24,000 nt of DNA from positions 12,164-36,163 of the forward strand of contig CAZVMS010000216.1 of assembly GCA_964628795.1 (NCBI GenBank). The letters are read 5' to 3'. Made by a program: the position numbers and the translations under genes. Positions 7,612 through 18,485 of the stretch are shown piece after piece. Under the pieces are notes generated by a model, which worked only from the letters and a program-made list of their open reading frames with translations, did no database searches and had not been told where the DNA came from. Origin of the DNA: an uncultured Haloferula sp. (GTDB taxonomy: Bacteria > Verrucomicrobiota > Verrucomicrobiia > Verrucomicrobiales > Akkermansiaceae). Positions within the stretch are counted from its first letter, which is position 1, and each line of letters opens with the position of its first letter.

Positions 7612-7950
7612 TCATTTCGCGTTGTGGTAGAGGTGCTTTTCGATGCGCTCCCTCGCTTCGCGGGGGAGCGGCTCGGAATCGTTCGTGTCAGGAGCCTCTT
7701 CGTGATGACAGCAGCGGACCCAGTGCCGGAGGTTTTCGAACTGGGCGGGAAGGTGACGGCAGATGCCGCAAACCAGCAGGTGCATGCGGAGGCGCATCGA
7801 ATCGACGGGCTTGAGCGGGCCATCCATGCGTTGCGACGAAAGCCGGAAGGCATCGCGGCAGGTCATGCGGGTAAGCTTGAGCAACGGCCACATCATGGCT
7901 TCCATGATGCGGTAGCGCAGCGGCGGGCGTGGCAGTGAGACGGGTTTCAT
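7612..7950 (-). CDS. Small anti-sigma factor, zinc-binding (zf-HC2/ZAS-like), no obvious TM segment
   Basis: The start ATG overlaps the sigma gene stop (ATGA at 7947-7950). It has a ZAS-like H-x3-C-x2-C motif (MHLLVCGICRH) preceded by MTCRDAFRLSSQRMDG, which resembles the anti-sigma N-terminus C..... L..Y.DG. The C-terminal part contains WVRCCHHEE. Confidence 0.65.
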   Translation of the reverse strand: MKPVSLPRPPLRYRIMEAMMWPLLKLTRMTCRDAFRLSSQRMDGPLKPVDSMRLRMHLLVCGICRHLPAQFENLRHWVRCCHHEEAPDTNDSEPLPREARERIEKHLYHNAK

Positions 7951-8513
7951 GGCTGGATGCCCTGGTTTTGGAGGCAGATGCGCAGTTGCTGGCGCGAGCG
8001 GGTGAGCAACACGGCGGCGCTGCCTTTGGTGACACCTGCGGCGGCGGCGGCGGAAGGGACGTCGAGGCCATCGATCTCGCGCAGGGTGAACAAGAGCCGC
8101 AGACGCTCGGGGAGTTTTTCCATGCAGGCGCGGATCCACGTGGCGATTTCACTGCGGTTGGTAGCTTCATCCGGTGGCGCTTCCAGGGCGGACATGCCGT
8201 GGTTGGGGTCGATGCGCCACGAGCCGTGGCGATCGAAGGCGGAATCCAGCGGGTCGGCGGATGCCTCGAAGGGATCGACGCCTTGGTCGGACGGCGTGCG
8301 TTTCGATTTCCGGAAATGATCGATGACTTTGAATTTCATGATGCCCAACAGCCAGGTGGAGAGTTGCGAACGGCCGTCAAAGGACTCGCGTCGTTGCCAT
8401 GCGGCGGTGAGGCAGTCCTGCACGAGATCCTCGGCGGCGTGATGATCCCTGACCTTTCCCAGCGCGAAGCGGTAGAGAGTGTCGGCATGTTGCATGAGAT
8501 CGTCGATGGTCAC
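7947..8513 (-). CDS. ECF (group 4) sigma-70 family RNA polymerase sigma factor
   Basis: Region 2 reads LYRFALGKVRDHHAAEDLVQDCLTAAWQRRESFDGRSQLSTWLLGIMKFKVIDHFRK. Region 4 reads LPERLRLLFTLREIDGLDVPSAAAAAGVTKGSAAVLLTRSRQQL. The track start at 8513 is a GTG, and the first ATG is at 8495. Confidence 0.9.
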   Translation of the reverse strand: MTIDDLMQHADTLYRFALGKVRDHHAAEDLVQDCLTAAWQRRESFDGRSQLSTWLLGIMKFKVIDHFRKSKRTPSDQGVDPFEASADPLDSAFDRHGSWRIDPNHGMSALEAPPDEATNRSEIATWIRACMEKLPERLRLLFTLREIDGLDVPSAAAAAGVTKGSAAVLLTRSRQQLRICLQNQGIQP

Positions 8514-8566: not shown

Positions 8567-9067
8567 CTATGATGCATTTTCCGTTTTGCCCTGGAGTCGG
8601 CAACATCCGCCCTTGCAGAGGAAACGCCCGATGAGCGCATCCAGCGAGGCGCGGCCCGGACCGAAGGCGAGAACCACCAGGGAGACGATCAGATACGCGT
8701 AGGGTGCTTCGTCAGCGAATTCACCGAGACCGGCGAAGGCGTCCTCACGGTGTGCGGTGAGGTAGGCGACGATCATGGAAGCGGCGAGGGGAACCGCCGC
8801 GGTGCGCGACATCAGGCCGGCGACCAGCAGCAGTCCGCCGATCATTTCGACACCTCCTACGAAGGCGGCGTGGAATCCGGGCGCGGGGATGCCGAGCGAT
8901 TCGAAGAAGCCGGTGGTGCGTTCGAGATTGGTGAGCTTGCCCTTGCCGGTGAGGAAGAACGACCAGCCGATGGTGAGGCGGGCGAGCAGCAGGGTGCCAT
9001 CCGCGATCCAGGGCTGGGCGCGAGTGAAGAGGGAGCGGACGAGTTGGATGATTGCTTTGGATTTCAT
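8567..9067 (-). CDS. DoxX family membrane protein
   Basis: The preferred start is MKSKAIIQL (ATG 9067), 11 bp after the DUF2063 stop. It has the DoxX-like four-helix pattern (LLLARLTIGWSFFLTGKGKL, GIPAPGFHAAFVGGVEMIGGLLLVAGL, AAVPLAASMIVAYL, YLIVSLVVLAFGPG). It has an unusual Cys-rich tail, FLCKGGCCRLQG. Confidence 0.85.
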   Translation of the reverse strand: MKSKAIIQLVRSLFTRAQPWIADGTLLLARLTIGWSFFLTGKGKLTNLERTTGFFESLGIPAPGFHAAFVGGVEMIGGLLLVAGLMSRTAAVPLAASMIVAYLTAHREDAFAGLGEFADEAPYAYLIVSLVVLAFGPGRASLDALIGRFLCKGGCCRLQGKTENAS

Positions 9068-9078
9068 GATGCTTTCTG

Positions 9079-9876
9079 TTAGATGATGGCGAACCAGCCA
9101 TCGGCCTGCCAGGTGGCGCACCAGCGGCTGAGGGTATCGGTGCCGGGGATGTGGGGTGCGCTTTCCTCCAGCCAGTCGTCGAGGGACCAGGGGCGTCCGT
9201 GCAGCAGGGAAAGCATGGCGAACTCACCGGGTTCGAGAGAACGGTGGCGGACACCTCCCTCGCGGGTGCGCCAGACGGCGGCGTGATGCCGGTCACCCTC
9301 GCGCCAGCCGGATTCCGGATCGTGGAGCCAGGCGGAGGCATCGGCCTCGGTTTCGAGCAGGCGGACGTGGGCTTGCAGCGTGAATGATTCGTCGGCGACC
9401 TGCCTTGCGGTGGCGGGCGGAAGTTCGGCCGCTTCGAAACATGCCATCATCGACCACTCGACGGTGGCGATGGCGATGGCACGGCGGCGCAGCACAGGGT
9501 CGGTGATTTCCTTGCCGACAAACCGGGGCATCGCCCGTCCGAGGTGGCGCAGGGTGAAACTTTGCGACGGATGGGCGAGCAGATAGTTTTCCAACAAGTT
9601 CCAGAAACGTTCGTTGCCGAGAAGAGTCTTCAGGCCGGGGAAATCCTCGGCCACGGAATCGAGCAGGCGAAACCAATACTGGCGGTGATAGAGTTCCAGG
9701 CACTCGGCAGGAATCAGCGTGGGCGACGGGCGGAGCAGATCGTGGGCGGTGGAGAGGAACGCCGGGTCGTGCGGTTCGTCGGAGGCGGGCAGTTCGGTCG
9801 AGCGGCGGCTGGTGCCACGCAGCGGGAACTGCAGCGCGTCGAAAAAGCGGCGTTGGGTTTCAGCAAGCGGCGGCAT
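9079..9876 (-). CDS. DUF2063 domain protein (MNIO partner protein, BufC/HvfC/MbnC-like role)
   Basis: DUF2063-typical features are the N-terminal L.E.Q..F..AL..P and LELYHRQYWFRLLDSVAEDFPGLKTLLGNERFWNLLENYLLAHPSQSFTLRHLG. Its ATG at 9876 overlaps the DUF692 gene by 17 nt. Confidence 0.8.
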   Translation of the reverse strand: MPPLAETQRRFFDALQFPLRGTSRRSTELPASDEPHDPAFLSTAHDLLRPSPTLIPAECLELYHRQYWFRLLDSVAEDFPGLKTLLGNERFWNLLENYLLAHPSQSFTLRHLGRAMPRFVGKEITDPVLRRRAIAIATVEWSMMACFEAAELPPATARQVADESFTLQAHVRLLETEADASAWLHDPESGWREGDRHHAAVWRTREGGVRHRSLEPGEFAMLSLLHGRPWSLDDWLEESAPHIPGTDTLSRWCATWQADGWFAII

Positions 9877-10732
9877 GATGAGGCGTGCGTTGGGTGGCTT
9901 TGAAAAGCTCGGTGTCCCAGTAGGCGGAGGCTTTGAGCGCCTCGTTGTGGACTTCCTCGAAGGACGGGATGTGGGCGTCCCACTCCAGAAGCGTGGGTAC
10001 CGGGCCGCAGCGCTCGATGGCGCGGGCGTAGAGTTTCCACACCGGATCGATCACCGGGTGGTCGTGGGTGTCGATGATGAATCGCTCGTATTTTGAGTGG
10101 CCGGCGATGTGCATCTGCATGACCCGCTCCGGTTGGATGAAATCGACATATTCCAGCGGATCGAAGCCGTGGTTGATCGAGGAGACATAGATGTTGTTCA
10201 CGTCGAGTAGAATGCCGACATTGGCGCGTTCGACGACTTCGGCGAGAAATTCCCACTCGGTCATCTCGTCGTCGTTGAAGGCCGCGTAGCTGCTGACGTT
10301 TTCCACGGCCATCGGGATTTCGAGATAGTCCTGGGCGATGCGCAGGTTCTCGGCGATGCCGCGCGCCGCTTCGGTGGTATAGGGCATGGGCAGCAGGTCG
10401 TGGCTGAAGGTGCCGTCCACGCTGCCCCAGCAAAGGTGATCGGAAATCCACGGCGTGCGCGTCCGTTTGATGAGCGCCTTCAGGCGGCGCAGGTGGTCGA
10501 AATCGAGGCCTGCGGCATTCCCCGGGTAGAGCCCCACGCCATGCTGGACGACCTGGTATTGCTCCAGGATGCGGTCGAGCACGGCGAGGGGTCTTCCCCC
10601 GTCCACCATGAAATTCTCGGAGATGATTTCGAACCATGAAACGTCGGGCGTTTCCGAAAGGATATGATCGTAATGCGGCACGCGCAGTCCGATGCCGATG
10701 CTGAGCGGCTTGGTTTCCTGGTGCGGTTTCAT
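9860..10732 (-). CDS. DUF692 family multinuclear non-heme iron oxidase (MNIO; MbnB/BufB/HvfB-like)
   Basis: There is an essentially full-length DUF692/UPF0276 pattern: SIGIGLRVPHY, VSWFEIISENFM, VVQHGVGL, WISDHLCW, HDLLPMPYT, MAVENVSSY, EWEFLAEVV, ILLDVNNIYVSSINHGFDP, MHIAGHS, IDTHDHPV and PTLLEWD. Confidence 0.92.
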   Translation of the reverse strand: MKPHQETKPLSIGIGLRVPHYDHILSETPDVSWFEIISENFMVDGGRPLAVLDRILEQYQVVQHGVGLYPGNAAGLDFDHLRRLKALIKRTRTPWISDHLCWGSVDGTFSHDLLPMPYTTEAARGIAENLRIAQDYLEIPMAVENVSSYAAFNDDEMTEWEFLAEVVERANVGILLDVNNIYVSSINHGFDPLEYVDFIQPERVMQMHIAGHSKYERFIIDTHDHPVIDPVWKLYARAIERCGPVPTLLEWDAHIPSFEEVHNEALKASAYWDTELFKATQRTPHHAAAC

Positions 10733-10758: not shown

Positions 10759-10791
10759 TCCGCGCGGACGACTTGCTGCCGCCCGCGCGGA
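10759..10791 (-). terminator. Intercistronic GC-rich stem-loop between precursor gene and MNIO gene (possible attenuator/partial terminator or mRNA-stabilising hairpin)
   Basis: TCCGCGCGG (10759-10767) and CCGCGCGGA (10783-10791) form a perfect 9-bp stem around a 15-nt loop. On the minus-strand transcript the hairpin is followed by AAUUUCUCUCAUUCCAUUUCU. Confidence 0.4.
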
Positions 10792-10801
10792 TGGGTGAGC
10801 C

Positions 10802-11092
10802 TCAGAGGATCGAGGAAGCGAGCTTGTCCTTGCCCTTGCAGCCGTCCTTGCCGGAGCACTTCTCCTTGTCGCCTTCTTTCTTTTTGCCATCGCATCCGTC
10901 CTTGCCGGAGCACTTGTCTTTCTCGGCGGCCAGGACGCTGGTGATGGATTCCTTCTTTTTGCCATCGCAGCCGTCCTTGCCAGAGCATTTTTCCTTGTCC
11001 GCATTGACATAGCCAATGGCGGCGGTGGCGCTGCCTGCGGCGAAGAGTCCGGCGAGTGCGGCGGTGGCGAGGGTTTTGGTGGTTGGATTCAT
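10802..11092 (-). CDS. Secreted Cys-repeat RiPP precursor peptide (bufferin/oxazolin-like; 96 aa)
   Basis: The preferred start is ATG 11092 (MNPTTKTLATAALAGLFAAGSATA|AIGY..., a Sec signal with an A-x-A site). The core contains three copies of (D/E)K(E/D)KCSGKDGC(D/K)GK, giving 6 Cys. It lies directly upstream of DUF692/DUF2063/DoxX on the same strand. Confidence 0.8.
   Translation of the reverse strand: MNPTTKTLATAALAGLFAAGSATAAIGYVNADKEKCSGKDGCDGKKKESITSVLAAEKDKCSGKDGCDGKKKEGDKEKCSGKDGCKGKDKLASSIL
10829..10999 (-). repeat. Three 42-nt coding repeats inside the precursor gene
   Basis: The units are at 10829-10870, 10883-10924 and 10958-10999. The two pairwise hand counts made (unit 1 vs unit 2, unit 1 vs unit 3) each give 36/42 identities. 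Each unit encodes one xKxKCSGKDGCxGK module. Confidence 0.85.
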
Positions 11093-11430
11093 GATGATTT
11101 CTTGTGGTTGTCTGTTTGTGGTTTGCCGCCTTCCGATGCCCGTGTGGCATCTCCGGCGCACTGGTGAGTCGTCCGGCGTTCGCGAGGCTTAACACGGATG
11201 ATGAAGTTTTTTCCTATTCCTCGGGTTGGCCCCCAAACCGGTAGGCATCACGAGAAATCATCCAGCCAAGACGAGTTGAGTCGATGTGGCCAAACCATGA
11301 TCCACCCGCCTGGCTCTCTTTGGTAGGGAGCGGATGTTGATTTTCCACGATGGGTTTCATGCCGCCCAAGCTTCGCAACAGAAAGTTGATGAGCGTCCTA
11401 CTCGGATGTGTTAGGCGGCTGAACCGGCGG

Positions 11431-11767: not shown

Positions 11768-12325
11768 GTGAATGACATGAACTCGGCATCCCAGCATCGC
11801 CCTCAGGATTCCCGTCAAGAGGCGGAGATCGCACTCGGCATTGCCTCTCTGAGGCTGCCACTACGCGGCTATCTGCACACGCTCGTTCCGGACCGGGCAG
11901 CTTGTGATGATCTGGTCCAAGAGACGTTGCTATTTCTCTGGGAACGGAGGGAAAGCGCCGATGAATCGACCCCGCTCAAGACATGGGCCTTCAAGGTGGC
12001 GTGGTTCAAGTCGATGGCCTGGCATCGCGACCGTCGGCGGGACCGCCTGGTCTATTTTTCCGACGACATGCTTCAACAGATTGCCCCATTGGCCGAGGCG
12101 ATGAGCAGCACCGCCGAGAATCGACTGGAAGCCCTGCGCCACTGCCTGGCTGGCCTCCCGGAAGAGGATTTGGCCTTGCTGCGGCTCAAGTATGTCAATC
12201 AGGGATCGCTCACCAGCTACGCCAACGCGCGGGGTTGGAAACCAAACCGCGTGCAGAAAGCCCTCTCTCGCCTGCGCCTTGCGTTACGCCATTGCATTCG
12301 GACTCGCCTACTTTCAGAATCATGA
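11768..12325 (+). CDS. ECF sigma-70 family sigma factor (Rhodopirellula/Verrucomicrobium-type)
   Basis: Region 2 reads DDLVQETLLFLWERRES...LKTWAFKVAWFKSMAWHRDRRR. Region 4 reads LPEEDLALLRLKYVNQGSLTSYANARGWKPNRVQKALSRLRLALRHC. The track start 11768 is a GTG, and ATG 11777 is equally possible. Its stop overlaps the next ATG (ATGA at 12322-12325). Confidence 0.9.
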   Translation: MNDMNSASQHRPQDSRQEAEIALGIASLRLPLRGYLHTLVPDRAACDDLVQETLLFLWERRESADESTPLKTWAFKVAWFKSMAWHRDRRRDRLVYFSDDMLQQIAPLAEAMSSTAENRLEALRHCLAGLPEEDLALLRLKYVNQGSLTSYANARGWKPNRVQKALSRLRLALRHCIRTRLLSES

Positions 12326-13842
12326 ACACCCCCACCCCAGAACTGCGGGATCTACTCGACCGCCTGATCGACGAGGATGGCCTGAGTCGCTCCGATATGG
12401 GCCGACTTGAAGAGCTGATGAGCGAGCCGGAAATCATGTCCTATTGCTGCGAAATGCTGCTGCATGAGTCGCTCATGCCTGAGGCCCTTGCGACCATGGA
12501 AACCGCGCTTTCGCATGTCCATGGAGATCAGCAGCCAGTTCGATCGGGTGTGATGGGTCGTATTGCCCGGATTCTTCCGCTGGCGGCGGCTGCCGGACTC
12601 TCCTTTTTCGCAGGGCTACTGGTCGGCGATAATCCGTCTCCTCCGCCGGCATCCGCCGCCGCTCCACCCGCCGGATTCACCACAGACCACGCCGCCAAGG
12701 TGACCGGCCTGATGGGCGTCGTCTGGCAAGACAACGCCGCCCCGACCGTCATTGATGGCTCGGTGAACGCACAAAGGGTCGCGTTCAAGAGCGGATTGGT
12801 CGAACTGACTTACGCCAGCGGCGCGCGCGTCACCCTCGAAGGTCCGGCCGATTTCACCGTGTCCGATCCGACTTCCGGCCGACTCTCAGCCGGCAAACTC
12901 GTGGCCTACGTGCCCAAGGGCGCGGAAGGATTTACCGTCGATTACGGCAATGGTCAGGTCGTTGACCTTGGCACCGAGTTCGCGATGGATCTCGCCGCGA
13001 ACGGCAAAATGGAACTCGGCGTGTTCGAGGGCGAAGTGGAGCTTCACCTGCCCGACGAAACTCCATTGTTACTTAACCGCAGCCAGGCAATGGTGCACGA
13101 TCGGAATGCGGAAGAACCACTCCGCCCCGTGCCCTTCGACCGCGCCAAGTTCGTCCGCGAGCTTCCGAATCGGGACATTCCATGGGCGATAAAATCCTCC
13201 GAACCGACGGAGCTGGAACTCGACATCAGCCACCTCATCTGGAAGTCAGCGGAATACCGGGCCATCTTCAAGTGGTTCTCTGGGAAGGACGCTGTGGAAA
13301 TCCGCCACGTCGAACTCCGCCGGGACGGTGAGCTGATTGCCGCAGACCCGCATCCCGGGCAGACCGGCCTGCTTCTTCATGTGAAGGATAACATCTACGA
13401 CCTCACGATTCCTTCCGGCTACTATCAACCCGGCCGCTGGACCCTCCACGCCACCATCGCCCAATTGCCGCGAACCGGTGGAATGACCCGCTACCGCGGC
13501 CCGGTCGATAGCTCGGGAGTCATGGTCTTGGAGGAAGGCATGGTAAACCGGGCGCAGGCAGCTGACTTCATCGGTGCCTGGAGTTATTCGTTTGCCGGTG
13601 CCCGCTTCGTCCGCCGGTTCCACGCCGATGGCACCATCACGGTCACCAAGAACGGACAACGGCAGCCCAAAGCCTTCGCCAACTGCTCTTGGTGGGTGGA
13701 CAAGGGCGTTCTTCATGCGGAGATCCCGAACGGCGACGGATTGGTGGAGACCCACATCCTGCGCGACCGCGACACCTTGATCTTCACCAACCGGTCATTT
13801 GGCAATGCGGTTCGTGTTGCGGAAGAGGGCAGCGGCGATTGA
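12322..13842 (+). CDS. FecR-like transmembrane anti-sigma factor with an uncharacterised C-terminal domain of about 230 aa
   Basis: The chosen start is ATG 12322 (MNTPTPELRDLLDRLIDEDGLS), coupled to the sigma stop by an ATGA overlap. It has a single TM (IARILPLAAAAGLSFFAGLLVG) and a FecR-type beta-rich region (GLVELTYASGARVTLEGPADFTV...GFTVDYGNGQVVDLGTEFAMDL...GVFEGEVELH). The rest of the protein (from about IPWAIKSSEP onward) was not recognised. Confidence 0.8.
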   Translation: MNTPTPELRDLLDRLIDEDGLSRSDMGRLEELMSEPEIMSYCCEMLLHESLMPEALATMETALSHVHGDQQPVRSGVMGRIARILPLAAAAGLSFFAGLLVGDNPSPPPASAAAPPAGFTTDHAAKVTGLMGVVWQDNAAPTVIDGSVNAQRVAFKSGLVELTYASGARVTLEGPADFTVSDPTSGRLSAGKLVAYVPKGAEGFTVDYGNGQVVDLGTEFAMDLAANGKMELGVFEGEVELHLPDETPLLLNRSQAMVHDRNAEEPLRPVPFDRAKFVRELPNRDIPWAIKSSEPTELELDISHLIWKSAEYRAIFKWFSGKDAVEIRHVELRRDGELIAADPHPGQTGLLLHVKDNIYDLTIPSGYYQPGRWTLHATIAQLPRTGGMTRYRGPVDSSGVMVLEEGMVNRAQAADFIGAWSYSFAGARFVRRFHADGTITVTKNGQRQPKAFANCSWWVDKGVLHAEIPNGDGLVETHILRDRDTLIFTNRSFGNAVRVAEEGSGD

Positions 13843-13990
13843 GTCGAGCGGGAGACGGTCACGCTCTTGCGGAATTCAAAGCGCCGCCCGTCAGCAAACC
13901 GGCATTTGTGGTACTAGGCTGTGCAGCTTGCTTTTGCTCCAAAGGCTTTCCAACTCCGCATTTGCCCGACGACCCACCCCTCTTGAATTC

Positions 13991-16240
13991 ATGTTAAGCG
14001 ATTTGTTCCGATGGATTGTTTTTGCCCTCGGCCTCTCAACTGCCTTTCCGGCACTGGCGGATAGGCCTGCGGCGCCCGGAGCGCCAGCCGCAGCGGCTGT
14101 CATCCAACGCCTGCTGCCGGAGCACGCCGATGACTTTGTTTGCGAAATCCTCGCGGGAAACAAGGATCTCGACGTGTTTGAAATCACGACCCGCGATGGA
14201 AAAATCGTGCTTCGAGGCAACCGGCCCGTGTCGATCACCGCAGCGTTCAACCACTATCTGAAATACGTCGCGGGCGGTCATCTCTCGTGGAGCGGCGACC
14301 AGCTCGATCTGGCAAAACCGCTGCCGCTACCGACAGAACCCATCCGCATCGAGAGCCGCTTCCGCCATGGTTACGCGTTCAACTACTGCACATTCAGCTA
14401 CACCATGGCCTGGTGGGACTGGCCGCGCTGGGAACGGGAGATCGATCTGATGGCCGCCAACGGCATCGACCTGCCGCTCGCCATCACCGCTACCGAGGCG
14501 GTCTGGCTCAATGTCCTGCAATGCTTCGGCTATACCAAGGACGAGGCGAAACGATTCATCGCCGGCCCCGGTTACACCGCCTGGTGGCTGATGGGAAATC
14601 TCGAGGGTCGTGGCGGCCCGATCACCGACACTTGGATCGAATCCCGCGTGGCCCTTCAGCGGAAGATTCTTGCCCGCATGCGGGAGCTTGGCATGAGGCC
14701 GGTCATGCAGGGGTTTGTAGGGCTCGTTCCCAACAACTTGCCGCGAAAAGTGCCGGGCACAAGAGTGATCCCCCAAGGCCGTTGGCTCGCCGACCAGCGT
14801 CCCGCCGTCCTCCATCCGGAGGATCCCCTGTTCGCCCGCATGGCCTCGGCATGGTATGAGGAAAAGGAGAAGCTATTCGGGCACTCCGATGCCTTCGCCG
14901 GAGACCTGTTTCATGAGGGCGGCAAAACAGGGGGGATCAGTGTTGCCGCCACCGTCCGCACCGTGCAGCAGGCCATGCTCGCCGCAGACCCGCGCGCTTT
15001 ATGGATCATCCAGGGATGGGGTGGAAACCCGAAGGGTGAGCTGCTCACGGCACTCCATCGCGAGAACACGATGGTGGTCGAGTTGTGCAATGAATTCTGG
15101 CGCAATTGGGTTCCCACCAAGGGTTTCAATGGCACTCCATGGACTTTTGGGACGGTCGTGATCTACGGCGGGAACACCGCGCTTCATGGCCGGCTTGACA
15201 CCATCGCCAACAACCTCAAGGACGCCCTTGCCAGCAAAACCCCACCGATCGGCATCGGCATGGCATGGGAGGGAACCGAAAGCAATCCGGTGGTCAACGA
15301 TTTCCTTTGGGATGCCCGCTGGAGCACCGACGTGCCGGACCCGGGGCATTGGATTGATGGCTATGCCACCCGCCGCTACGGCACCCACCGCCGCGAGGTG
15401 CGTGATGCATGGAAGCTCCTGCTGCAGTCCGCCTACGCCTCATGGCCGAATCAGCGCCGCCCGGGCGAGTCCGTCTTCTGCGCCCGGCCGTCACTGGATG
15501 TTCGAAAGGTTTCGCCATTCGCCGCCAGCATCGAGGTTCCCTATGACCAACGATTGCTGCGCGAGGCGCTGCGCCTTCTGCTGGAAGTCGCGCCCGATTG
15601 TGCCGACCGCGAAACCTATCGCCATGACCTGGTCGATTTCACCCGCCAGTTCATGGCGAATGCCGCGCAGATCCCCTACCGGGAAATGGTCGCCGCCTTC
15701 CGCTCCGGGAATGCGTCCGAGTTCGAGGCCGCAGCAAAGCAATTCATCGACATGCTCGACGATCAGAGCCGCCTGCTGGCCGCGGATTCCCACTTTCTGC
15801 TTGGACGCTGGCTGTCCGACGCACGTGCTTCCGCCGGTGACGATACGGTACAACGCGAACAAAACGAGCGTAACGCCCGCCTGCTCATCACCACCTGGAC
15901 GCAGGAGCGCTCCGGACTCGGCGACTACGCGTGGCGCGAGTGGAGCGGCCTGCTCGATCGCTACCACCTCCCGCGCTGGCAGGCCTTCATCGACGATTTG
16001 CGCGGTCGCCTCGCCGGACGCAAACCCTCACCACCGAACTACTTCGCCATGGAATCCGCCTGGGCCGCCCGCCAGTGGGAAAACGATTCCTACCCACTTG
16101 CGGTTTCCGGTGATCCGGTGCTCCTGAGTCGCGAGTTGTTAGATCGTTGGGGGCCGATGCTCGATGACGCCAAGCGCTACAGCCCGCCCGTGACCCCTCG
16201 GAAACCTGAAATCATCGAAGAGGCCACCGAAGCCCGCTGA
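13991..16240 (+). CDS. Alpha-N-acetylglucosaminidase (glycoside hydrolase family 89, NAGLU-like), secreted
   Basis: The preferred start is ATG 13991 (MLSDLFRWIVFALGLSTAFPALA, a signal peptide). NAGLU-typical blocks are AAFNHYLKYVAGGHLSWSGDQL, YAFNYCTFSYTMAWWDWPRWEREIDLMAANGIDLPLA, GPGYTAWWLMGNLEG, RMRELGMRPVMQGFVG and LWIIQGWGGNP. Confidence 0.9.
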   Translation: MLSDLFRWIVFALGLSTAFPALADRPAAPGAPAAAAVIQRLLPEHADDFVCEILAGNKDLDVFEITTRDGKIVLRGNRPVSITAAFNHYLKYVAGGHLSWSGDQLDLAKPLPLPTEPIRIESRFRHGYAFNYCTFSYTMAWWDWPRWEREIDLMAANGIDLPLAITATEAVWLNVLQCFGYTKDEAKRFIAGPGYTAWWLMGNLEGRGGPITDTWIESRVALQRKILARMRELGMRPVMQGFVGLVPNNLPRKVPGTRVIPQGRWLADQRPAVLHPEDPLFARMASAWYEEKEKLFGHSDAFAGDLFHEGGKTGGISVAATVRTVQQAMLAADPRALWIIQGWGGNPKGELLTALHRENTMVVELCNEFWRNWVPTKGFNGTPWTFGTVVIYGGNTALHGRLDTIANNLKDALASKTPPIGIGMAWEGTESNPVVNDFLWDARWSTDVPDPGHWIDGYATRRYGTHRREVRDAWKLLLQSAYASWPNQRRPGESVFCARPSLDVRKVSPFAASIEVPYDQRLLREALRLLLEVAPDCADRETYRHDLVDFTRQFMANAAQIPYREMVAAFRSGNASEFEAAAKQFIDMLDDQSRLLAADSHFLLGRWLSDARASAGDDTVQREQNERNARLLITTWTQERSGLGDYAWREWSGLLDRYHLPRWQAFIDDLRGRLAGRKPSPPNYFAMESAWAARQWENDSYPLAVSGDPVLLSRELLDRWGPMLDDAKRYSPPVTPRKPEIIEEATEAR

Positions 16241-16361: not shown

Positions 16362-18485
16362 ATGATCATTCCACTAAAACCGAACCTGGGATTTGATGCA
16401 GACTCGGCCGCGACCCTCGTCGAATCGCAGTATCACACCCCACACCAACACTCCTTGAAGACGTTCAATCTCCTTCGTGCCATTGCTCTTCTGTTCGTCG
16501 CTGTGACTGCCCCAAGTGGCGCCGACGATGTCGATCAGGTCATGGAACTGGCCAAGCCCGCGATTGTGAGGATCGAGGTGCTCATGGAGGAAGGCCGGGA
16601 CGGCCGAATGTTCAAGCAGCGCGGCTTCGGCAGCGGTGCCATCATCAGCCCGGATGGATACGTGCTCACCAATCACCATGTCGCCGGACGTGGCACTCGT
16701 TTCCGCTGCACCCTGGCCGACCGCGAGGAAATCCCGGCCACGCTCGTCGGCACCGATGCATTGGCGGACCTCGCCGTGATCAAATTGGATCTCTCCGCCC
16801 GGATGAATCCAAACGCGCCGGTGACCGTCGCGACCTTTGGAGATTCCTCGCAATTGAAAGTCGGCGACACCGTGTATGCCCTCGGCAGTCCGGCAGCCCT
16901 GTCGCAGTCGGTGACCAAGGGCATCGTCGCCAACACTGCGATGATCGCACCGAAAATCATGGCCGGCGGTTTGGTGCTGGATGGCGAAAACGTCGGTGAA
17001 TTGGTCCGCTGGATCGGTCACGACGCGGTGATTTTCGGTGGCAACAGCGGAGGACCGCTGGTGGATACCGCCGGCCGGATCATCGGCGTCAACGAAGTCG
17101 GCATCGGTAGCCTCGGCGGCGCGATTCCCGGCAACCTCGCCAAGGAAGTCGCCCACGAACTGATCACCAAGGGCAGCGTGAGTCGTGGTTGGATCGGCAT
17201 CGAGGTCCAGGAACTTCTGCGGGGCGACCGTCAGCACCGCGGCGTGCTGGTAGCCAGTGTGTTTCCCGGCAGTCCCGCCGCCGCCGCCGGGCTCAAGCCG
17301 GGGGATTTCCTCCACACCTTCAATGGCACGCCGATCCCCGATTGCCGCTCGCCGGAGGATCTGCCGGTGTTCAACTCGATGGTGTTAGGCAGCAGGGTCG
17401 GCTCCCCAATCACCCTGACCGGCGAAAACGAGGGCCAACCGACGACTTGGACCGTCGAGGTCATCGCACGCGCCCCGGTGCAGGATCTCGAAAGCGAATT
17501 TGTCCAGTGGGGCATGACCGCGCGGGGCGTCTCGCCGATGGGGGCGCTGGAATTAAAACGCGACAGCACGGCGGGCGTGCAGGTTCACAGCGTCCGAGCC
17601 GGCGGACCAGCCGCCGAAGGTAAGCCGGCCCTTAGAGCGCAGGACATCATCACCCAACTCAACGGCAAGGAGGTGCGCACGCTGGCCGACTTCCGCGCAT
17701 TCAATCGTTCGTTGCCGACAGACGCCAAGGAGCCACAAGCCGTGCTGGTCGCCTTTGAACGCGGAGTGACCCACGACAAGTATCTCACCGTCGTGCGGAT
17801 CGGCCCCGAACCCAAAGCGCAGAATCCGCTCACCGCCGACCGCGGCTGGCTGGGTGTCGACGTCCAGGAGCTCGGCCCGGCACTAGCCGAGGCGTTGAAG
17901 CTCAAGGGCACCACCGGCGTGCGTATCACCCGCATCCAGGCGGACAGCCCGGCGGCCCGTGGCGGCTTGCAGGCCGGCGATATCCTCACCAAGCTGGACG
18001 GCCAGATCATTCCCGCCCGCCGCCCCGAAGACGTGCGCCGATTCACCGAGAGCATCGCCCAACGGGCCCCCGACGCCCCCGTCGCGATCGAATTCATCCG
18101 CGATGGCGGCAAACAATCCGCCACCGTCACACTCGCCGCCAGCCCGGCCGATGATGACGACGTGCCGAAATGGAAAGATCCGGACTTTGAGTTCGCGGTC
18201 TGCGATCTGACCGAAGCCATCAAGGACGCACAGAACATCCCGCTCACGGTCAAAGCCGCCCGTGTCACCGATGTCACGCCCAACGGCTGGGCTTCGCTGG
18301 CCGGACTGTCGAAACATGATTTGATCCTGAGCATCGACGGCGAGCCGATCAACGGTGCCGCCGAACTGGAGAAAAAGTTGGGCGCGCTCAAAGCCGCCAA
18401 ACCCCCGCTGATCGAGTTTTTCCTCCAACGCGGAGTGCGCAATCTCTTCATCCAACTCGAACCCGCTTGGCCCGCCGAATCCTGA
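16362..18485 (+). CDS. HtrA/DegP-family serine protease with four PDZ-like domains
   Basis: The catalytic triad context is intact: GSGAIISPDGYVLTNHHVA (His), DLAVIKLD (Asp) and GGNSGGPLVD (Ser). Four PDZ-like segments are present (GVLVASVFPGSPAAAAGLKPGDFL; VHSVRAGGPAAEG..AQDIITQLNG; GVRITRIQADSPAARGGLQAGDILTKLDG; VTDVTPNGWASLAGLSKHDLILSIDG). It has an N-terminal signal-anchor. Confidence 0.9.
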   Translation: MIIPLKPNLGFDADSAATLVESQYHTPHQHSLKTFNLLRAIALLFVAVTAPSGADDVDQVMELAKPAIVRIEVLMEEGRDGRMFKQRGFGSGAIISPDGYVLTNHHVAGRGTRFRCTLADREEIPATLVGTDALADLAVIKLDLSARMNPNAPVTVATFGDSSQLKVGDTVYALGSPAALSQSVTKGIVANTAMIAPKIMAGGLVLDGENVGELVRWIGHDAVIFGGNSGGPLVDTAGRIIGVNEVGIGSLGGAIPGNLAKEVAHELITKGSVSRGWIGIEVQELLRGDRQHRGVLVASVFPGSPAAAAGLKPGDFLHTFNGTPIPDCRSPEDLPVFNSMVLGSRVGSPITLTGENEGQPTTWTVEVIARAPVQDLESEFVQWGMTARGVSPMGALELKRDSTAGVQVHSVRAGGPAAEGKPALRAQDIITQLNGKEVRTLADFRAFNRSLPTDAKEPQAVLVAFERGVTHDKYLTVVRIGPEPKAQNPLTADRGWLGVDVQELGPALAEALKLKGTTGVRITRIQADSPAARGGLQAGDILTKLDGQIIPARRPEDVRRFTESIAQRAPDAPVAIEFIRDGGKQSATVTLAASPADDDDVPKWKDPDFEFAVCDLTEAIKDAQNIPLTVKAARVTDVTPNGWASLAGLSKHDLILSIDGEPINGAAELEKKLGALKAAKPPLIEFFLQRGVRNLFIQLEPAWPAES

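Follow-up and report, generated by a model that had tools for sequence, protein, structure and literature searches.

A repeat-built candidate bufferin-type precursor peptide encoded upstream of an MNIO gene in an uncultured Haloferula sp.

The stretch analyzed here, called the window, consists of 24,000 nucleotides of contig CAZVMS010000216.1 (assembly GCA_964628795.1, positions 12,164 to 36,163) from an uncultured Haloferula sp. of the Verrucomicrobiota. On its minus strand, the window carries a gene for a 96-residue peptide with three two-cysteine modules, directly upstream of genes for an MNIO (DUF692) maturase, a DUF2063 partner, and a DoxX membrane protein. We consider it likely that the locus as a whole is best explained as encoding the BufA-like precursor of a ribosomal peptide of the bufferin/captophorin type, together with the pathway and regulation proposed below, the chemistry being assigned by homology. 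The system class is already known (PMC11626156, PMC12452194, PMC13097082), and the MNIO is an equivalog-level BufB. That is, the peptide is an unmodelled branch of a recently described family, not a new kind of system or chemistry. The peptide, singled out as unusual in the initial annotation, does not stand alone: it belongs to the described bufferin/captophorin class.

The precursor is very probably the substrate of the adjacent MNIO, and its cysteines the modification sites, because the gene lies directly upstream of the MNIO, DUF2063, and DoxX genes and because an MNIO is present at 57 of the 66 related loci found in a scan of species-representative genomes. The initial inference that MNIO/partner pairs may act on this peptide, drawn from the residues flanking the cysteines, is supported to that extent. 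Bufferin/captophorin peptides have been described as the largest group of RiPPs (ribosomal peptides modified after translation) made by MNIOs and as a widespread means of bacterial copper handling, and their precursor diversity is partly catalogued. The present locus defines a compact, repeat-built Verrucomicrobiota precursor type, a link between folded BufA2 peptides and the repeat-type layout of HvfA.

The precursor gene and its operon

The open reading frame (ORF) 11092..10802 begins with an ATG and ends with a TGA at 10804..10802; both the ORF and its 96-residue translation are exactly as initially annotated. The layout of the peptide is MNPTTKTLATAALAGLFAAGSATA↓AIGYVNA-DKEKCSGKDGCDGK-KKE-SITSVLAA-EKDKCSGKDGCDGK-KKEG-DKEKCSGKDGCKGK-DK-LASSIL. 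By inspection, residues 1–24, MNPTTKTLATAALAGLFAAGSATA (11092..11021), form a putative Sec-type signal peptide with Lys6 in the n-region, a hydrophobic core 14 residues long, and A-T-A↓A as the cleavage motif, and these features are kept across all homologues inspected. The remaining 72 residues, 25–96, are the core. Translation and a repeat search locate in it three DKEKCSGKDGCxGK modules, as follows: module 1, DKEKCSGKDGCDGK (residues 32–45; 10958..10999), module 2, EKDKCSGKDGCDGK (residues 57–70; 10883..10924), and module 3, DKEKCSGKDGCKGK (residues 75–88; 10829..10870). The earlier description of six Cys confined to three identical C-S-G-K-D-G-C strings, in a core nearly free of aromatic residues, is borne out, Tyr28 being the single aromatic residue. 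Short hydrophobic patches, AIGYV and ITSVLAA, stand before modules 1 and 2, and a C-terminal Ile-Leu (10805..10810), invariant in the Verrucomicrobiales subfamily described below, closes a peptide that is otherwise extremely hydrophilic. An AlphaFold2 model built from a 26-sequence alignment has no secondary structure (mean predicted local distance difference test score 47.6, predicted template modelling score 0.14), and the precursor peptide is thus predicted to be disordered.

The precursor ORF is a real gene under purifying selection. In comparisons with two orthologous genes, the ORF frame has pN/pS values of 0.10 and 0.26, while the remaining sense frames exceed 2, and gene calls for the identical peptide exist on at least 23 metagenome contigs. 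On the grounds of selection, conservation, and gene context, a spurious ORF is rejected. The start at ATG 11092, which had been named as a point at which the annotation might fail, is supported by two observations. Homologues begin at the equivalent Met, and the alternative GTG at 11161 would sit at or before the transcript start because a promoter-like motif ends just 2 nt upstream of it, at 11163.

The precursor gene heads a series of six genes that all run in the same direction, on the minus strand. The MNIO gene (290 residues; 9860..10732; PF05114, 348.5 bits) begins 69 nt past the precursor stop codon. Its product scores 342.5 bits on the MNIO_BufB model NF050167, which passes the equivalog cut-off of 310, and 243 bits on the HvfB model NF003818, which fails the cut-off of 360. 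It matches PDB 3BWW at E 1e-45, with the blocks HG, DHL, VEN, LDVNN, HIAGH, DTH, and LLEWD conserved; these we take to be the iron-ligand motifs of MbnB. The DUF2063 partner (PME1, BufC/HvfC-like; 265 residues; 9079..9876) scores 56.5 bits on PF09836, above the cut-off of 27.2, and 39 bits on the HvfC model NF050145, under the cut-off of 142; its NGO1945_C match is weak (23.4 against 27), and a PDB search with this protein gave no match. The DoxX membrane protein (BufD/HvfX-like; 166 residues; 8567..9067, the start being that of the metagenome gene call) scores 74.1 bits on PF07681 and 66.7 bits on the HvfX model NF050144, under the cut-off of 80.

A precursor/MNIO/DUF2063/DoxX gene set is that of the bufferins (PMC11626156) and of oxazolin (PMC11252979). 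The captophorin class, defined in 2026, comprises an MNIO, a PME1, and a Cys-rich precursor (PMC13097082), the latter having at least two Cys and at least 2.5% Cys. Here, the adjacent MNIO (PF05114), the DUF2063 partner (PME type 1), and a small Cys-rich precursor (6 Cys in 96 residues, 6.3%) are all present.

The last two genes of the operon are regulatory. An extracytoplasmic function (ECF) sigma factor of 188 residues (7947..8513) has Sigma70_r2 and r4_2 domains, and its best NCBIfam match is TIGR02943 (127.7 bits, under the cut-off of that model), a family found in 8.6% of MNIO-PME1 clusters (PMC13097082, Table S1). It is followed by a zf-HC2 (ZAS-type) anti-sigma factor of 112 residues (7612..7950; PF13490, 29.1 bits) with an H-x3-C-x2-C motif (HLLVCGIC). 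This protein is soluble, with no evident membrane segment, and has an extra VRCCHHEE cluster, together with a weak RsrA-like match. It could be a direct cytoplasmic sensor of metal or thiol stress. The ZAS group is known mainly for thiol or redox sensing.

Given such a regulator, the product might serve mainly in thiol/redox processes or in the general response to envelope stress, and less as a copper buffer. The ZAS anti-sigma factor would then sense oxidants or electrophiles, and DoxX and the Cys-derived heterocycles would take part in redox reactions. The cytoplasmic zf-HC2 protein with its additional Cys/His residues and RsrA-like match would suit this role, as would the lack of copper genes nearby in the window, and one report notes that the literature ties MNIO-PME1 clusters to oxidative stress (PMC13097082). 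Set against these points, the characterized class members Buf1, HvfA, and FonA all bind copper via heterocycles, ZAS domains respond to metals too, and DoxX is dispensable for Buf1 function (PMC11626156). We therefore hold a redox role to be unlikely and retain copper buffering as the working assignment.

Modules, relatives and the MNIO residue

At the DNA level, the repeat search finds three 54-nt copies, at 10949-11002, 10874-10927, and 10820-10873, with identities of 85, 100, and 74%. The 42-nt module cores, for which 36/42 identities had been counted by hand in each of two pairs, give 36/42, 36/42, and 35/42 in a recount of all three. Tandem Repeats Finder did not report the module repeats because the copies are not strictly head-to-tail. 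About half of the differences among the copies are synonymous, so the DNA likeness of the modules reflects mostly protein-level conservation and codon bias, not very recent duplication. With three identical modules in one short chain, the peptide offers a simple system for the study of metal binding per module.

A word-indexed search returned 54 homologues with a C-x-G-K-x-x-C module. An exhaustive profile search gave 464 cluster representatives at E ≤1e-3, and 51 of these reach E ≤1e-10; among the best 150 of the 464, all are small, with lengths of 61–191 residues. Where NCBI gives family members a name, it is "hypothetical protein". Most of the 66 loci are from Verrucomicrobiota (Akkermansiaceae, Luteolibacter, Opitutae, and Chthoniobacterales), and a few are from Planctomycetota, Alphaproteobacteria, Burkholderiales, and Bacteroidota. 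When present, the MNIO gene is directly downstream in all loci but one, usually with DUF2063 and DoxX, and the nine loci lacking it are mostly on short or cut contigs. The MNIO-DUF2063 order is repeated in all six of the extra metagenome contexts that reach beyond the precursor gene. Two gene orders are found: A-B-C-X(-sigma-anti-sigma), which is the window type, and A-X-sigma-anti-sigma-B-C, which is that of several Akkermansiaceae.

The C-terminal -IL marks a subfamily. It is found in 40/54 homologues of the first search and in 70 of the 253 unique peptides overall, and in alignment A3, made from the mature -IL subfamily, I66 and L67 are invariant columns. The -IL peptides from named genomes all come from Verrucomicrobiota metagenome-assembled genomes (MAGs), that is, from Akkermansiaceae, Luteolibacter, Verrucomicrobiaceae, and the like. 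The window peptide is a member of this mainly Verrucomicrobiales subfamily, which is characterized by predicted disorder, a Lys/Asp/Glu-rich sequence, variable Cys clusters, the -IL end, and an MNIO with a WD[A/G/S] signature.

The suggestion that module number can expand or contract finds good support among the relatives. Over the whole family, 809 of about 1,300 Cys-to-Cys intervals have a spacing of 6. At this spacing, 21 peptides have a 2-2 pattern of Cys clusters, 12 have 2-2-2, the window type, and 7 have 3-3, and further patterns include 2-3 and 3-3-3. Subfamily members have 2–9 Cys in clusters of 2–4 each. Direct evidence that unit gain or loss happens comes from two near-identical precursor genes in two MAGs (L008, 35-352, and L009, 5001-5336), which differ by one clean, in-frame 18-nt indel (GCKGKD) and one substitution. 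In addition, the half-modules of P0006 and P0009 are short by exactly six residues, and P0053 has a 24-residue tandem duplication relative to P0051. In some Burkholderiales relatives, extended (CKGKDG)n stretches hold 12–19 Cys. Stretches with 10–19 Cys in which CxGKDG or CSGKDGCGGKSDxKSG units follow one another at length were also noted in L047, L055, L024, L051, L032, and L064, which are labelled Burkholderiales, Vulcanimicrobiota, Xenobia, or unclassified "bacterium" and lie in some cases on contigs with no visible MNIO; these peptides look like extreme expansions of the same Cys unit.

The MNIO varies along with the precursor. The window enzyme is 85.6% identical to the MNIO of a Luteolibacter MAG. 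Its LLEWDAH segment aligns with LLERDFN of 3BWW, which places Ala253 after the catalytic Asp, at the site of FonB Phe250. At this site, EGKCG-type MNIOs have Phe, and Cys-Lys (BufA2-type) MNIOs have Asp (PMC13097082). Among the loci, enzymes with WDD are paired with BufA2-core precursors in 21 of 24 cases, and for those with WD[A/G/S] the precursor is of the (CxGKDGC)n kind in 24 of 27, including all 17 of the -IL peptides. Thus, the selectivity residue covaries with precursor type, and we infer that change at this position causes the change in specificity. The locus is a natural test of whether the residue after the catalytic Asp (Ala, Asp, or Phe) sets Cys-context selectivity.

Since MNIOs are chemically diverse, and since the residue beside the catalytic Asp is unlike that of both characterized thiooxazole subgroups, an Ala-type subgroup could install a different modification, e.g., an oxazolone-thioamide or, within a pair, a cross-link from one Cys to the other. 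This we regard as improbable. The window MNIO exceeds the curated cut-off of the BufB equivalog, it shares 65–86% identity with the MNIOs of BufA2-core peptides in other Verrucomicrobiota and Planctomycetota, and later work describes the HvfA modification as a thiooxazole. The 5-thiooxazole assignment is kept in what follows.

Expression signals and the proposed pathway

Upstream of the precursor gene lies a bipartite, promoter-like motif on the minus strand, with a "−35" element, GTTAAG (11188..11193), and a "−10" element, CGACTCACC (11163..11171). In a k-mer count, GTTAA[G/T]-N16/17-CGACTCA(CC) was found 60–100 nt upstream of the precursor start in 14 Verrucomicrobiales loci (the window, L009-L012, L014, L017, L018, L020, L026, L037, L046, L050, and L061). 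The canonical ECF promoter, AAC-N15-19-CGT, is absent upstream of the Verrucomicrobiales precursor genes, and no sigma-70-like promoter was found either. The conserved motif resembles the Caulobacter SigF motif, GTAACC-N16-CGAA, and GTTAAG-N16-CGACTCACC is probably the promoter for the operon's own ECF sigma factor.

Two RNA hairpins flank the coding sequence. In the 5′ untranslated region, a stem-loop at 11127..11158 has an inner stem of GATGCC (11151..11146) and GGCATC (11140..11135), a minimum free energy of −16.6 kcal/mol, and a z score of −2.3. A hairpin of differing sequence is found 12–17 nt downstream of the "−10" element in 13/13 loci folded (z −0.9 to −3.6). RNAalifold gave no consensus structure on the alignment of this region because the hairpins are out of register, and single-sequence folding shows them. 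The stem-loop could be a 5′-end stabilizer or a regulatory site. The second hairpin, at 10759..10791 between the precursor and MNIO genes, is GC-rich and terminator-like, with a 14-bp stem (−31.6 kcal/mol, z −4.87) followed by ATTTCTCTCA. In 58 of 67 related loci, a hairpin with z < −2 occupies the equivalent place past the stop codon, often with a U-tract after it. This arrangement suggests a leaky terminator (attenuation) or a stabilizer that raises the level of precursor transcript over that of the enzymes.

These signals bear on the question of whether the peptide is made and modified at all. It might be that the ORF is not expressed, or that it encodes an unmodified, metallothionein-like periplasmic Cys peptide while the MNIO acts elsewhere. 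Such a reading is very hard to credit, given that the conserved promoter-like motif and the terminator flank the ORF, purifying selection acts on its frame, the MNIO residue varies in step with the precursor type, the adjacency of precursor and MNIO is conserved across phyla, and the operon holds no other candidate substrate.

In published work on the bufferin/captophorin-type pathway, BufBC and HvfBC/FonBC install 5-thiooxazoles, and the products bind copper (PMC11626156, PMC13097082). By analogy, we propose the following. In the cytoplasm, the MNIO and its DUF2063 partner would oxidize the Cys of the C-S-G-K-D-G-C strings to 5-thiooxazoles, with a loss of 4 Da per Cys. The peptide would then be exported by Sec and cleaved by signal peptidase I after Ala24, and the disordered, Lys/Asp/Glu-rich product would remain in the periplasm. 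There, each pair of heterocycles would bind one copper ion, up to three per peptide, and so buffer metal stress; six modified Cys acting as three bidentate sites, as initially proposed, is plausible on the analogy of HvfA. Expression is probably driven from GTTAAG-N16-CGACTCACC by the in-operon ECF sigma factor together with its cytoplasmic zinc-finger anti-sigma factor, and the strong hairpin after the stop codon probably yields more precursor transcript than enzyme transcript. Unit number shifts through in-frame 18-nt gains and losses.

Several observations weigh against this proposal. No Pfam or NCBIfam precursor model, those for DUF2282, BufA2, and HvfA included, matches the peptide at E up to 1, a result that also runs counter to the earlier caution that it might prove to belong to some precursor family already modelled. 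The MNIO selectivity position has Ala, neither the Asp of the Cys-Lys enzymes nor the Phe of the EGKCG enzymes (PMC13097082). The anti-sigma factor is of the ZAS type, whereas the Caulobacter copper regulon has NrsF, and no copper-homeostasis genes are nearby within the window. Lastly, the second Cys of every pair precedes Asp or Lys, a context rejected by FonBC (PMC13097082), and some Cys of Caulobacter Buf1 and Buf2 stay unmodified and form a disulfide (PMC11626156).

The last two points suggest a rival reading, partial conversion. A thiooxazole might form, for instance, at the first (K-C-S) Cys of each pair alone and the second (G-C-D/K) stay as a thiol or disulfide, giving other metal sites and another stoichiometry. 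We look on this as a genuine possibility, well short of even chances. The two Cys of each module are in different contexts, FonBC does not process a Cys before a charged residue (PMC13097082), and in Caulobacter Buf2 it is the first and last Cys that are unmodified, likely as a disulfide (PMC11626156). In contrast, close relatives read C-K-G-K-D-G-C-K-G-K, which gives both Cys the same context, the small Ala of the MNIO pocket may accept both contexts, and every repeat Cys is modified in HvfA and FonA. The pathway is put forward here with conversion of up to six Cys.

It is tempting to extend the pathway to the -IL peptides as a specialized branch. Such a branch would make a disordered, poly-thiooxazole "metal sponge" whose capacity is tuned in the course of evolution by gain and loss of six-residue Cys units. 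A widened-pocket MNIO (Ala/Gly/Ser) would modify both K-C-S and G-C-D/K, the Ile-Leu would be a recognition or retention tag (read, e.g., by the partner protein or a periplasmic PDZ protease), and control by the zinc-finger anti-sigma factor would be direct. Taken as a package, this extension is doubtful.

The rest of the window holds typical Verrucomicrobiota/Planctomycetota genes. A second ECF sigma factor, paired with a FecR-like anti-sigma factor (11768..13842, plus strand), is divergently transcribed and appears to be unrelated to the peptide operon; downstream of it, an alpha-N-acetylglucosaminidase is encoded (about 13990..16240). The plus strand also has, at 16362..18485 and 5 kb from the operon, the gene for a serine protease that is HtrA-like and carries four PDZ domains. 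This protease was considered as an Ile-Leu reader and set aside as a coincidence, since it was not seen in three other contexts with gene lists.

Comparison with known systems

Surveys of MNIO neighborhoods provide a setting for the window peptide. Small ORFs that encode a signal peptide and 1–18 Cys occur by the hundred directly before MNIO genes, and an unstructured signal-peptide family with bufferin-like clusters, adjamnio-3, is described as well (PMC12452194); 33 Verrucomicrobiota clusters have been counted (PMC13097082). Judged by the published description, the unclassified ORFs of the MNIO mega-cluster resemble the window peptide, with its putative signal peptide, in these traits and in their place next to an MNIO, and adjamnio-3 resembles it in lacking structure and in its bufferin-like clusters. 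In the MNIO literature texts and supplements searched, there is no mention of a CSGKDGC-type motif or of Luteolibacter, and the texts searched make no mention of an -IL precursor subfamily, an Ala/Gly/Ser MNIO signature, a ZAS anti-sigma factor, or the promoter-like motif. Within the captophorins, the "Cys-Lys repeat" group (PMC13097082) is similar in that close homologues of the window peptide have CKGKDGCKGK repeats, that is, Cys-Lys motifs. The window peptide itself differs in having Cys-Ser and Cys-Asp and a repeat period of six residues instead of a 5-mer.

In layout, the closest counterpart is HvfA, the oxazolin precursor, which has 95 residues, a 24-residue signal, and three AEGKCGEGKCG modules that bind one Cu(I) per Cys pair (PMC11252979). 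The window peptide likewise has about 95 residues and a putative Sec signal of 24 residues, and its chain, Lys/Gly-rich and predicted to be disordered, carries three modules of two Cys each in tandem. Its gene set of precursor, MNIO, DUF2063, and DoxX is that of HvfA, FonA (fontiphorin), and NgoA (gonophorin), and the first Cys of each module, a Lys-Cys followed by a small residue, recalls the EGKCG or "Lys-Cys" precursors. Unlike HvfA, FonA, and NgoA, which have C-x4-C and come from Pseudomonadota, the window peptide has C-x5-C and comes from Verrucomicrobiota, and, unlike the Lys-Cys systems, its MNIO has Ala in place of the typical Phe and falls under the HvfB cut-off.

The initial annotation had compared the peptide with both HvfA and the 6/12-Cys bufferin precursors, and the two halves of the comparison part company. 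With HvfA, the likeness is one of architecture only. An hhalign comparison of the mature -IL subfamily with HvfA/FonA/NgoA gave 0.03%, that is, no sequence relationship. The HvfA models (NF050137 KCGExKCG_twice and NF050188) match neither the window peptide nor seven family members, and none of the relatives retrieved by the family profile match HvfA models, whereas the positive controls HvfA, FonA, and NgoA, taken from the supplement of PMC13097082, score 48–90 bits on NF050137 (cut-off 19.5). No GKCG motif was found in the homologue proteins among the matches listed. The resemblance in layout is, therefore, read as convergence, not homology.

The kinship with bufferin precursors lies on the BufA2 side. 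For BufA1 (DUF2282, PF10048), Pfam gave no match to the peptide at E up to 1. The BufA2 model NF050166, with a curated cut-off of 60 bits, gave no match to the window peptide at E up to 1, and relatives score 10–44 bits, all under the cut-off, with E 1e-6 to 1e-11 for the more distant ones. A protein search seeded with the BufA2 core retrieved 3,273 relatives, the sequences of which were used for profile comparison only; the search turned up no curated BufA2 examples, and the names listed are "hypothetical protein" throughout. In hhalign, the mature -IL subfamily (A3) aligns with the BufA2-core peptides (A4) at 95.4%, E 2e-8, over 56 columns with the Cys pairs in register, a result to be read with the low complexity of the sequences in mind and with the fact that A4 itself holds one CSGKDGC module. 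Many Opitutae and Chthoniobacterales peptides have one such module fused to a canonical CKGxNxCKGxGGC...CKGxNxCKGxGGC core, and these are intermediates between the module peptides and the BufA2 core.

BufA2/Buf2 itself (BUF_6/12Cys; NF050166; Caulobacter vibrioides CCNA_03001) shares with the window peptide a putative Sec signal, six Cys, C-x5-C spacing, and Gly/Lys beside Cys, and its system shares a BufB-type MNIO and a DUF2063 partner. The number of Cys is not a conserved trait of the window subfamily, in which six Cys at C-x5-C stand beside members with 2–9. The differences are as follows. BufA2 is predicted to be a small folded protein (PMC11626156), whereas the window peptide is predicted to be disordered. 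BufA2 is built on the CKGxNxCKGxGGC core, whereas the window peptide has identical modules with Lys/Asp/Glu linkers and ends in Ile-Leu. In the window MNIO, the catalytic Asp is followed by Ala in place of a second Asp, and the ZAS anti-sigma factor stands in contrast to the membrane protein NrsF of the Caulobacter bufferin operons. Because of the hhalign result and the dominant Cys spacing of 6, as against the HvfA-type spacing of 5, we take the peptide to be a diverged, simplified modular offshoot of the BufA2 (6/12-Cys, C-x5-C) lineage.

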